From contig CAXRDE010000005.1 in the NCBI GenBank assembly GCA_964229355.1, positions 37,131-101,130 on the forward strand: DNA of 64,000 nt, written 5' to 3'. Under the pieces are notes generated by a model. That model was not told the DNA's origin and ran no database searches. It saw nothing but the letters and a program-made list of their open reading frames with translations. A program made the position numbers and the translations under genes. This document shows positions 54,774 to 56,072 of the stretch, in pieces; the first letter of the stretch is position 1; each line of letters starts with the position of its first letter. The stretch comes from Candidatus Sericytochromatia bacterium (lineage in GTDB: Bacteria > Cyanobacteriota > Sericytochromatia > UBA7694).

Positions 54774-56072
54774 ATGCAAAAAGATGTTCTCCGTGTGGGT
54801 GAGAAAGCCCTCTCTCATCATTACATTAGTCGCTACCAGCTCCGTCAAGCCCTGGATTTACAGAAGACCACAGCAACACCTCTGGGCCCTTTGCTGGTCA
54901 AACTGGGCTTTTTACCGGCTCACCATATGGAGCAGGCCTGTAAAGCTGACTGCTGTAAAAATACCCCTTCACAGCGACTCGGTGATTTGCTGCTAGCCAA
55001 AGGCTGGATCAGCCCACAACATCTTGCAGATAGCCTACAGACGCAAAAACAATGTGAGAAAAATCTCGGTGAAGTCTTACAGGCAAAAGGACTCATCAAC
55101 AGCGAGCAATTGGAGAGTGCCCTAACAGAGCTCCTCATGTCTCGCTCTCCCCATCACAAACGACGTCTGGGCAAAATCCTGACCCAAACCCAACAATTGT
55201 CTCACTGGCAATTGCAACAGGCATTAAAAGAGAAAAGCACAAACCCTGGCTCAAATTTTTTGGGTGAAATCCTGGTAAAACGCCACTGGTTACATCCTCA
55301 GCAACTCAAACAAGCCTTGCGTTTGCAAAAACGGCTTTTGCGCAAAATGGCTACTTTATTTGTTGGGACAAGCCTCTTAATGGCTTGCAAGGCCCCTGTC
55401 GTTCCCCATCAAATTCCCTCGATAGGGGATCTGCGGGTAGCAAACGCTATATTACGCTCTCCTACCGCCGTTAACGGAGATTTTCGAACCCTCAGTGTTA
55501 AAGATCGGGATCAACACAATGTGGCAATTCGGGTGTATAAAAACGGTAGCCGAGTGGTTGAAAACGTCCCCTTTGCTCTACAAGGCAAGGACAACACCTG
55601 CGGACAAGCAGTGGCCACCATGATCACTAATTTTTGGGGGATTCAAACAGACTACCAGGCTCTGGTGAATCAAGAAAACCGTTTCAATCTGGCCACCACG
55701 GCAATAGCCCTGGTCAATTCACTGCGCAACAAAGGGCTGGTTTCACAGGACTTTCGAGAAGCCACCCTTGAAAATCTGATGGCTGAAGTCAACGCCGGGC
55801 GCCCGGTGATTACACTTTTGGATTTTGGCAGCATTCAAAACGCGCATTACGTGGTGGTGGTCGGTTATAACACCGAACGAGACACCTTGATCATGCACGA
55901 CAGCTTAGAAGGAGCGTATGTAGAAATGCCTCAACAAACCTTTATGACCCTGTGGGAGAATAAAGCATTGCGCAGCGTGCTACCTGTCGGCGGAGCCAAT
56001 TATCGTCGACTGATGATTACCGCTCAACACCCCCAAAGCGCTCCTGAGTTGACCGGTAAATTATTGTTCTAA
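54774..56072 (+). CDS. protein with four N-terminal MshEN/T2SSE_N-like (c-di-GMP-binding type) repeats and a C-terminal C39-like cysteine peptidase domain
   Basis: Four repeats fitting RLGxxLLxxGhIxxxxLxxxLxxQ (PLGPLLVKLGFL..., RLGDLLLAKGWISPQHLADSLQTQ, RLGKILTQTQQLSHWQLQQALKEK, FLGEILVKRHWLHPQQLKQALRLQ). A hydrophobic segment MATLFVGTSLLMAC. NTCGQAVATMITNFWG ... AHYVVVVGYN is the C39-like Cys/His pattern. Confidence 0.6.
   Translation: MQKDVLRVGEKALSHHYISRYQLRQALDLQKTTATPLGPLLVKLGFLPAHHMEQACKADCCKNTPSQRLGDLLLAKGWISPQHLADSLQTQKQCEKNLGEVLQAKGLINSEQLESALTELLMSRSPHHKRRLGKILTQTQQLSHWQLQQALKEKSTNPGSNFLGEILVKRHWLHPQQLKQALRLQKRLLRKMATLFVGTSLLMACKAPVVPHQIPSIGDLRVANAILRSPTAVNGDFRTLSVKDRDQHNVAIRVYKNGSRVVENVPFALQGKDNTCGQAVATMITNFWGIQTDYQALVNQENRFNLATTAIALVNSLRNKGLVSQDFREATLENLMAEVNAGRPVITLLDFGSIQNAHYVVVVGYNTERDTLIMHDSLEGAYVEMPQQTFMTLWENKALRSVLPVGGANYRRLMITAQHPQSAPELTGKLLF

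Follow-up and report, generated by a model that had tools for sequence, protein, structure and literature searches.

The window analysed here is a stretch of 64,000 nucleotides from a Candidatus Sericytochromatia bacterium (contig CAXRDE010000005.1, assembly GCA_964229355.1), and our subject is a single gene within it, whose product carries an array of MshEN_N modules, related to those of the cyclic di-GMP (c-di-GMP) receptor MshE, ahead of what appears to be an internal lipoprotein signal peptide, a tether and a C39-like cysteine peptidase domain. The open reading frame (ORF) at 54774-56072 on the plus strand, as called in an earlier sequence-only reading, was recovered exactly and encodes 432 residues. 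The protein is a new architecture made from known modules, and we found no report of the pairing of MshEN_N with C39. The coordinates of its parts are collected in Table 1.

The N-terminal half of the protein is built of MshEN_N-type modules. The NCBIfam model NF053729 ('cyclic di-GMP-binding domain-containing protein, MshE-related'), which models the 53-residue motif pair alone and has a curated cutoff of 38 bits, gives the whole protein 122.1 bits (E 5.9e-36) and is matched by all 53 family members, that is, the full-length homologues in our alignment. Six motifs of 24 residues fill this half (residues 7-30, 36-59, 68-91, 97-120, 131-154 and 162-185) and pair into three units of 53-55 residues, each of which passes the cutoff alone; pairs taken off register fall just under it (35.8 and 36.5 bits). 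The sequence-only reading was right to place MshEN-type motifs here, but it had counted four repeats instead of six motifs in three pairs. Scores of the N-terminal half against NF008411 and NF012033 are sub-threshold and confined to the MshEN region of these models (NfrB-type glycosyltransferases). A phmmer search of the PDB with the same half recovered Thermus thermophilus PilF (E 6.8e-13), including its c-di-GMP-binding GSPII-B domain, and Vibrio cholerae MshE (5HTL, E 1e-3), and unit 2 aligns to both GSPII-B (8pfa, 8pdk) and MshE (5htl). In the AlphaFold model (predicted local distance difference test, pLDDT, 86.7 for the full length and 82.5 for the N-terminal half alone) only helices precede residue 203, and the array forms 12 helices in six pairs, in each of which a turn joins a short helix to a long one. 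Foldseek against the PDB placed c-di-GMP-bound PilF GSPII-B and MshE as the best matches of this half (root-mean-square deviation 0.8-0.9 Å, 41-48% identity, probability 1.0), with E values of about 0.3 on a short alignment (44-55 columns, about 53 residues), and unit 2 of the model, 41-48% identical to GSPII-B, overlays its c-di-GMP-bound form at 0.8 Å. The family score, the sequence matches to PilF GSPII and MshE, and this superposition together identify the repeats as MshEN_N modules. Only the short N-subdomain is involved: the C-terminal alpha/beta subdomain of MshEN is not present, and Pfam T2SSE_N (PF05157), the family under which the sequence-only reading had expected the repeats to score, found no match even at E 10, either in the whole protein or in the N-terminal half alone.

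The individual motifs are less regular than had been proposed. The consensus RLGxxLLxxG[W/L]IxxxxLxxxLxxQ, which the sequence-only reading had fitted to all repeats, is met strictly only by motif 68-91 (RLGDLLLAKGWISPQHLADSLQTQ), and the other five of the six deviate. At positions 1, 3 and 24 the two motifs of unit 1 read R-G-Q and P-G-D, those of unit 2 R-G-Q and N-G-L, and those of unit 3 R-G-K and F-G-Q, so that the deviating key residues are P36 and D59, N97 and L120, and K154 and F162, respectively. Unit 1 is the most degenerate, with Met or Cys at Leu positions and Asp at position 24. Throughout the array Gly3 is kept in six of six motifs, and the triad Leu2/Leu17/Leu21, which grips the guanine bases in MshE (PMC5013675), in five of six. 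Apart from these motifs, a C-x3-CC motif (ACKADCC, residues 56-61; 54939-54956) lies in the linker 6-8 residues ahead of unit 2. The pattern C-x(2,3)-CC-x-[HQ]-[RK]-R occurs at the homologous place in 14 four-unit members and in 16 of 61 members overall, and might serve the cytoplasmic array in metal binding, redox chemistry or S-acylation.

Between the array and the peptidase lies the hydrophobic segment (residues 192-205) that the sequence-only reading had also noticed. It is, however, not a mere spacer, and its features are those of a lipoprotein (signal peptidase II) signal peptide with an invariant lipobox. Across the 53 homologues the segment ends in L-x-[AGS]-C: Cys205 and the [AGS] at -1 are invariant (53/53), and position -3 is hydrophobic in all 53 (L/V/M/I/F). 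Six Lys or Arg residues lie in the 15 residues of its N-terminal flank versus one in the 15 of its C-terminal flank, and the Kyte-Doolittle maximum is 1.60 at residues 192-210. The h-region, counted as the uncharged run before the Cys, spans 10-17 residues in 61 fused forms and 12-21 in stand-alone lipoprotein paralogues. The position of the lipobox Cys is far beyond the usual first 15-35 or so residues, namely residue 205 here and 145-311 in the other fused members. In the stand-alone paralogues, which are short forms of 205-260 residues opening with an ordinary N-terminal lipoprotein signal peptide, it is found at residue 17-30. An in-frame stop lies at most 40 codons upstream of the short-form loci, which are therefore not truncated gene calls. 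Since these paralogues share both the C39 domain and the post-Cys motif C-x-x-P-x-V-P-x-Q with the fused forms, the internal segment is homologous to their N-terminal signal peptides, and the fused proteins are probable lipoprotein precursors in which the n-region has been replaced by the MshEN_N array. The anatomy of the segment with its positive N-flank, together with this homology, predicts a cytoplasmic array and a periplasmic peptidase. The tether of about 30 residues that follows Cys205 has a pLDDT of 53-58 over residues 201-230, and in different members of the family 61 to 128 residues separate the lipobox Cys from the catalytic Cys; the model thus points to a flexible, length-variable connection between membrane and peptidase.

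In principle, the fusion could stem from chimeric assembly, from a frameshift or from a misplaced start codon that joined a small MshEN protein to a lipoprotein gene beginning at Met192. An in-frame ATG does coincide there with the beginning of the hydrophobic segment, and paralogous lipoproteins exist in stand-alone form. We consider such an artefact extremely improbable. About 60 sequence clusters show the same continuous architecture, and the assemblies behind them are independent (NCBI, JGI, ENA and Logan). A start at Met192 would give a signal peptide without a charged n-region. Moreover, Met192 is not conserved, most members having A, S, T or L at this position, and an internal start there was rejected on this ground.

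The C-terminal domain belongs to the papain-like C39 peptidases in the broad sense. Over residues 264-399 it matches Peptidase_C39_2 (PF13529) with 51.2 bits (cutoff 24), as the sequence-only reading had anticipated from the strings NTCGQAVATM and HYVVVVGY, both of which are present; Peptidase_C39 (PF03412) scores 42.1 bits (cutoff 22) and Peptidase_C70 28. The catalytic Cys and His that this reading had predicted proved to be Cys276 (in DNTCGQAV) and His358 (in AHYVVV), both invariant in the 53 sequences, as are Asp376 (in HDS) and the oxyanion residue Gln270. In an alignment of the family profile with ComA, DNTCGQAV, AHYVVV and HDS correspond to TRDCGPAV, QHYYVV and IGDP. Foldseek with the model recovered the peptidase domains of PCAT1, LahT and ComA (target template-modelling scores 0.73-0.86, E 2e-5 to 1e-4) and, more distantly, the phytochelatin-synthase-like Alr0975 of Nostoc and AvrRpt2. 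With its catalytic residues intact, the domain looks catalytically competent. Several narrower assignments were rejected. Membership in the PA2778 family (NF033920) fails at 47.5 bits against an equivalog cutoff of 150, over profile positions 2-136 of 255 only, and the pilus-system protein FilB (NF050078) and LapG were ruled out on scores. C39 in the strict sense, the N-terminal domain of ATP-binding cassette (ABC) exporters in bacteriocin processing, does not apply to a protein that has no ABC transporter domain and whose peptidase lies C-terminal to a signal peptide; TIGR03796 reaches only 12 bits.

Table 1. Features of the peptidase gene and of its upstream region (positions in the window; residue numbers refer to the 432-residue product).
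Feature	Position	Strand	Remarks
Whole gene: three MshEN_N units, lipoprotein signal peptide (predicted), tether, C39-like peptidase	54774..56072	+	ORF, 432 residues
MshEN_N unit 1 (residues 7-59)	54792..54950	+	NF053729 41.3 bits alone; motifs RVG...Q30 and PLG...D59; spacer KTTAT (5)
MshEN_N unit 2 (residues 68-120)	54975..55133	+	NF053729 57.3 bits alone; motifs RLGDLLLAKGWISPQHLADSLQTQ and NLG...L120; spacer KQCEK (5)
MshEN_N unit 3 (residues 131-185), membrane-proximal	55164..55328	+	NF053729 44.1 bits alone; motifs RLG...K154 and FLG...ALRLQ185; spacer STNPGSN (7)
Internal lipoprotein-type signal peptide (residues 186-205), predicted	55329..55388	+	n-region KRLLRK; h-region MATLFVGTSLLMA; lipobox LMAC, Cys205
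Post-Cys motif and variable tether (residues 206-235)	55389..55478	+	K-A-P-V-V-P-x-Q; P208, V210, P211 and Q213 nearly invariant
C39-like papain-fold cysteine peptidase domain (residues 236-416)	55479..56021	+	Pfam C39_2, C39 and C70 matches
Key residues of the peptidase	Gln270 55581-55583; Cys276 55599-55601; His358 55845-55847; Asp376 55899-55901	+	invariant in 53 sequences
Inverted repeat GCTTTGTA-N8-TACAAAGC	54702-54709 and 54718-54725		8-nucleotide gap; upstream of the gene
Sigma-70-like promoter match	54628..54656	+	TTGACA-17-AAAAAT; consensus match; such sites are as many as expected from shuffling

The family is narrowly distributed and forms a graded series within single genomes. A profile search with the C39 domain across 1.84 billion representatives returned only 29 clusters at E 1e-30 or better, comprising fused forms and the forms of 205-260 residues. 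A scan of one genome per GTDB species gave 29 strong loci (L007-L035, tblastn E 3e-41 or lower), 26 of them in metagenome-assembled genomes (MAGs) of Sericytochromatia or Blackallbacteria and three in other MAGs labelled Cyanobacteria. All named members come from MAGs of Candidatus Sericytochromatia, Blackallbacteria or 'Melainabacteria', and the databases call them only 'C39 family peptidase' or 'hypothetical'. The closest relative, the full-length homologue P0001, is 91% identical to our protein and lies on a syntenic metagenomic contig. Length classes correspond to two, three or four MshEN_N units, with none in the stand-alone lipoproteins. For example, MAG_89 carries two three-unit copies (L009 and L010), one four-unit copy (L015) and one stand-alone lipoprotein (L029), and Blackallbacteria mt_P12 carries a three-unit (L008), a two-unit (L021), a four-unit (L019) and a stand-alone form (L028). 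Within a single-genome series of this kind, about 20 kb of one contig separates two three-unit copies.

Among known systems, V. cholerae MshE (PDB 5HTL) and T. thermophilus PilF GSPII-B (8PDK/8PFA) likewise contain paired 24-residue RLGxxLLxxGhhxxxxLxxxLxxQ motifs with a 5-residue spacer that form a four-helix unit. Unlike these proteins, the protein described here has three units in tandem, most of its motifs are degenerate at position 1 or 24, and its array leads into a signal peptide and an exported protease (both predicted) instead of into an MshEN_C/T2SSE_N subdomain and an ATPase. The fusion partners of MshEN listed by Wang et al. 2016 in their Supplementary Table 4 are ATPase, glycosyltransferase, REC, CheX, CheA, AAA_31, TrxB and Peptidase_M23, with no C39 among them (PMC5013675). 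The nearest published architecture is the MshEN_N-Peptidase_M23 protein of Acaryochloris (AM1_1153, 'NlpD'), tabulated there without characterisation (PMC5013675), which also combines a cytoplasmic MshEN_N, a hydrophobic segment and a periplasmic peptidase and also belongs to the Cyanobacteriota. A protein of this M23 architecture encoded on an Acaryochloris plasmid (P0333) differs from ours in having one unit instead of three, a metallo-type M23 peptidoglycan peptidase instead of a C39-like domain and a hydrophobic segment without a lipobox Cys. A further MshEN module on a membrane-associated envelope enzyme is that of the c-di-GMP-activated glycosyltransferase NfrB (PMC8669469), in which, however, sensor and enzyme are both cytoplasmic and the sensor is single and C-terminal.

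The peptidase domain shares its fold and the arrangement Gln-x5-Cys...His...Asp with ComA PEP (3K8U), PCAT1 (4RY2/7N87) and LahT150 (6MPZ). These domains are cytoplasmic, stand at the N-terminus of ABC transporters and cut double-glycine leaders, whereas the domain described here is predicted to be exported and lipobox-anchored and has no transporter. In NCBIfam and the PDB, the domain is closest in sequence to the PA2778 family, FilB and PDB 3ERV ('putative C39-like peptidase'). These are also C39-like proteins without a transporter, and none of them has an MshEN array. The closest functional analogy is offered by LapD and LapG of Pseudomonas fluorescens, where, in the 2011 reports of Newell et al. 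and of Navarro et al., LapD is said to sense c-di-GMP via a degenerate EAL domain and to sequester a separate protease, LapG (C93/BTLCP). The proposed logic is shared, in that cytoplasmic c-di-GMP sensing governs a periplasmic cysteine protease acting on envelope proteins. There is nevertheless no homology, as neither LapD GGDEF-EAL/HAMP nor LapG C93/DUF920 models of Pfam or NCBIfam match, and sensor and protease here form one polypeptide.

A single-sequence search with the N-terminal half gave one protein, and a profile search was needed to find further uncharacterised proteins, including one encoded in a Gallionella MAG, in which two or three MshEN_N units precede a signal or transmembrane segment and a small domain in the periplasm. 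In P0214, P0217, P0218, P0224 (the Gallionella protein) and P0333, one to three units stand directly N-terminal to a signal or transmembrane segment, which in P0217 ends in the lipobox LLAAC. The periplasmic part of this group varies between a domain of about 140 residues without family match and an M23 endopeptidase. This suggests that an MshEN_N module ahead of an export signal is a more general architecture. Our literature search found no published study of such an arrangement, and none that brings either C39 peptidases or lipoprotein signal peptides together with MshEN or with c-di-GMP.

Our preferred reading, which we hold at slightly less than even confidence, is that the gene product is a c-di-GMP-responsive pro-lipoprotein peptidase, in which array occupancy determines the amount of peptidase that arrives or matures in the periplasm, or the place where it does so. 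A C39-like cysteine peptidase would be exported across the inner membrane and anchored by lipidated Cys205, with a 190-residue cytoplasmic array of three MshEN_N modules taking the place of the usual n-region of a few residues. Cytoplasmic c-di-GMP would be bound by at least units 2 and 3, and occupancy would control the supply of peptidase to the periplasm through membrane insertion, maturation by Lgt and LspA, stability or placement of the precursor. Processing by Lgt and LspA is favoured because the lipobox is retained throughout the family, and the catalytic domain would not be switched allosterically, since a floppy tether cannot pass on a conformational change. The matured lipoprotein could then cut envelope or surface proteins, and the number of units (0, 2, 3 or 4 in one genome) may set differing c-di-GMP thresholds for similar peptidases. 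In support of this reading, MshEN_N arrays before a signal or transmembrane segment recur with other periplasmic domains (P0333, P0214/P0224). The sequence-only reading had proposed a sensor coupled to a protease. Its domain identities stand, but the two domains are predicted to lie on opposite sides of the membrane and are possibly separated by signal peptidase II, which changes what coupling can mean here.

Several observations weigh against this reading. As to the array, every unit departs at a key position, 1 or 24 (D59, L120 and F162), from the published motif even in its relaxed form, and the spacer of unit 3 has seven residues instead of five. Moreover, binding is absent in PilF GSPII-A, where neither motif has Gln at position 24 and motif II has Ser at position 1 (PMC12002112). 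As to the organism, the sequence examined gave no positive sign that it makes c-di-GMP: neither the window nor 367 kb of sequence flanking homologues contains an ORF with GG[DE]EF, a scope that leaves the whole genome undecided. Three 'EALxR' strings were chance matches, and the two that were checked with Pfam are not EAL domains. Conserved neighbours that could hint at a substrate were not found beyond the closest relative among the five loci compared. As to export, we are not aware of any lipoprotein signal peptide whose n-region is large and folded. Our literature search likewise found none with a large cytoplasmic domain and no 'internal lipobox', and lacking such a precedent, processing of this precursor by Lgt and LspA is an assumption. 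Finally, the fixed register between array and lipobox and the continuous helix that spans it, both described below, would serve mechanical coupling equally well.

Binding of c-di-GMP by the array is thus plausible but unproven. In PilF GSPII-B, Lys and Leu occupy position 1, yet the domain binds c-di-GMP at 6 nM (PMC11731258), and a single Gln24-to-Glu exchange raises its dissociation constant only to 460-950 nM, with binding lost only in the double mutant (PMC11731258). Judged by these published tolerances and the failure of GSPII-A, units 2 and 3 are plausible binders, while unit 1 is doubtful. It may also be that the array has lost c-di-GMP binding altogether and serves as a helical scaffold for oligomerisation or for docking of a partner (the ATPase platform of a pilus or secretion system, for instance), or that it binds another nucleotide such as cyclic GMP-AMP (cGAMP). 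The five motifs off the strict consensus, the key-position violation in every unit and the lack of GGDEF-motif ORFs in the sequence searched all agree with this view. Non-binding MshEN or GSPII domains are documented in XpsE (PMC5013675) and PilF GSPII-A (PMC12002112), and according to the MshE study MshEN binds cGAMP as well (PMC5013675). We nevertheless hold this alternative to be unlikely. Each unit scores above the curated NF053729 threshold, Gly3 and most of the Leu triads are retained, and GSPII-B tolerates deviations of similar kinds. Furthermore, the paralogues with four units keep the motif better than our protein does: their membrane-proximal unit is canonical at positions 1, 3 and 24, with [RK]-x-G...Q occurring twice, and most of them have Gln24 in all eight motifs. 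Such retention of Gln24 is as expected under selection for nucleotide binding and not for a generic helical scaffold.

The main alternative concerns the fate of the hydrophobic segment. The protein could remain an uncleaved bitopic receptor-protease, lipidated or not, in which c-di-GMP shifts the helix register or the oligomeric state and thereby switches the periplasmic peptidase, a one-polypeptide analogue of LapD controlling LapG. In the AlphaFold model the long helix of the final MshEN motif (residues 175-203) continues unbroken into the membrane segment. Nearly all of the 55 fused members tabulated keep the start of this motif at a distance of exactly 43 residues ahead of the lipobox Cys, and ALRLQKRL is nearly invariant among the aligned homologues. 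In addition, related MshEN_N-transmembrane-M23 proteins such as P0333 have no lipobox, so that the sensor must stay attached there. All of this would fit a bitopic receptor, but a mere transmembrane anchor leaves the lipobox, invariant in all 53 aligned members, without explanation. The uncharged run before the Cys, at most 17 residues long, is short for a stable transmembrane helix, and a 30-residue tether of low confidence and variable length is poorly suited to carry a conformational signal. On balance we regard this arrangement as improbable, though by no means negligible.

A more specific form of our preferred reading would treat the array as a ligand-regulated n-region. Here, c-di-GMP would gate insertion as well as processing by Lgt and LspA, cleavage at Cys205 would yield a mature lipoprotein peptidase and a tail-anchored cytoplasmic receptor, and the paralogues with zero, two, three and four units would represent graded thresholds. 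We consider this detailed scheme quite unlikely as it stands; if true, it would mean that a second messenger controls protein export through the signal peptide itself.

Known envelope outputs of c-di-GMP involve either a cytoplasmic enzyme that is activated, such as cellulose synthase or NfrB, or a transmembrane receptor that traps a protease, as in LapD and LapG. In the protein described here, one polypeptide joins a c-di-GMP module of the high-affinity type to a cysteine peptidase predicted to be exported, and the link between them is a putative lipoprotein signal peptide, an element usually regarded as a disposable address label. In this way a signal inside the cell could govern proteolysis beyond the cell membrane. 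Should the array bind c-di-GMP, the protein would offer a compact model for a cytoplasmic second messenger controlling periplasmic proteolysis and would test whether Lgt and LspA accept large folded n-regions. It would also provide a first functional handle on c-di-GMP signalling in the Sericytochromatia, an uncultured non-photosynthetic sister lineage of the oxygenic cyanobacteria, for which our literature search found nothing relevant on c-di-GMP. The paralogues with zero, two, three and four units in single genomes form a natural variant set for comparison.

With regard to its surroundings, the peptidase gene stands alone. Upstream, across an AT-rich gap of 203 bp, lies a divergent gene for a 2-oxoacid:ferredoxin oxidoreductase alpha-subunit, and downstream a convergent gene for a Rieske protein overlaps its 3' end by 12 nucleotides (56061-56072). 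The intergenic region (54571-54773) is 91% identical in nucleotides to positions 1198-1402 of the closest relative L001, compared with 80-88% in the flanking coding sequences, and the sigma-70-like site is identical in both; this better conservation may reflect regulatory constraint for either gene. The perfect 8-bp palindrome that the sequence-only reading had placed in the promoter was not borne out, as the 203-bp region contains no contiguous one, and about 0.6-0.9 would be expected by chance in this length. What is present is the gapped repeat GCTTTGTA/TACAAAGC, whose arms carry three non-compensatory substitutions in L001. Not being conserved there and being no rarer than chance, it was treated as noise and is probably without function. 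The same repeat also accounts for a terminator-like call on the minus strand. Rfam found nothing between 54400 and 56300 at E values up to 1, except a chance CRISPR-DR fragment within the coding region.

Elsewhere in the window, about 2.4 kb (57318-59724) is missing from the otherwise syntenic L001. This stretch holds two overlapping ORFs, 57303-58943 (546 residues) and 58925-59557 (210 residues), neither with a Pfam match, and may be an inserted accessory pair. L001 in turn has a gene with a Cthe_2159 domain (5759-7438) that is not present in the window. An ORF of 883 residues on the plus strand (13310-15961) matches no Pfam family at E up to 0.001. On the minus strand, an ORF of 828 residues (30761-33244) matches the shoulder domain of the Major Vault Protein with 104 bits and the Vault_3 repeat domain with 41 bits, and these matches identify its product as a predicted bacterial homologue of the eukaryotic vault shell protein.

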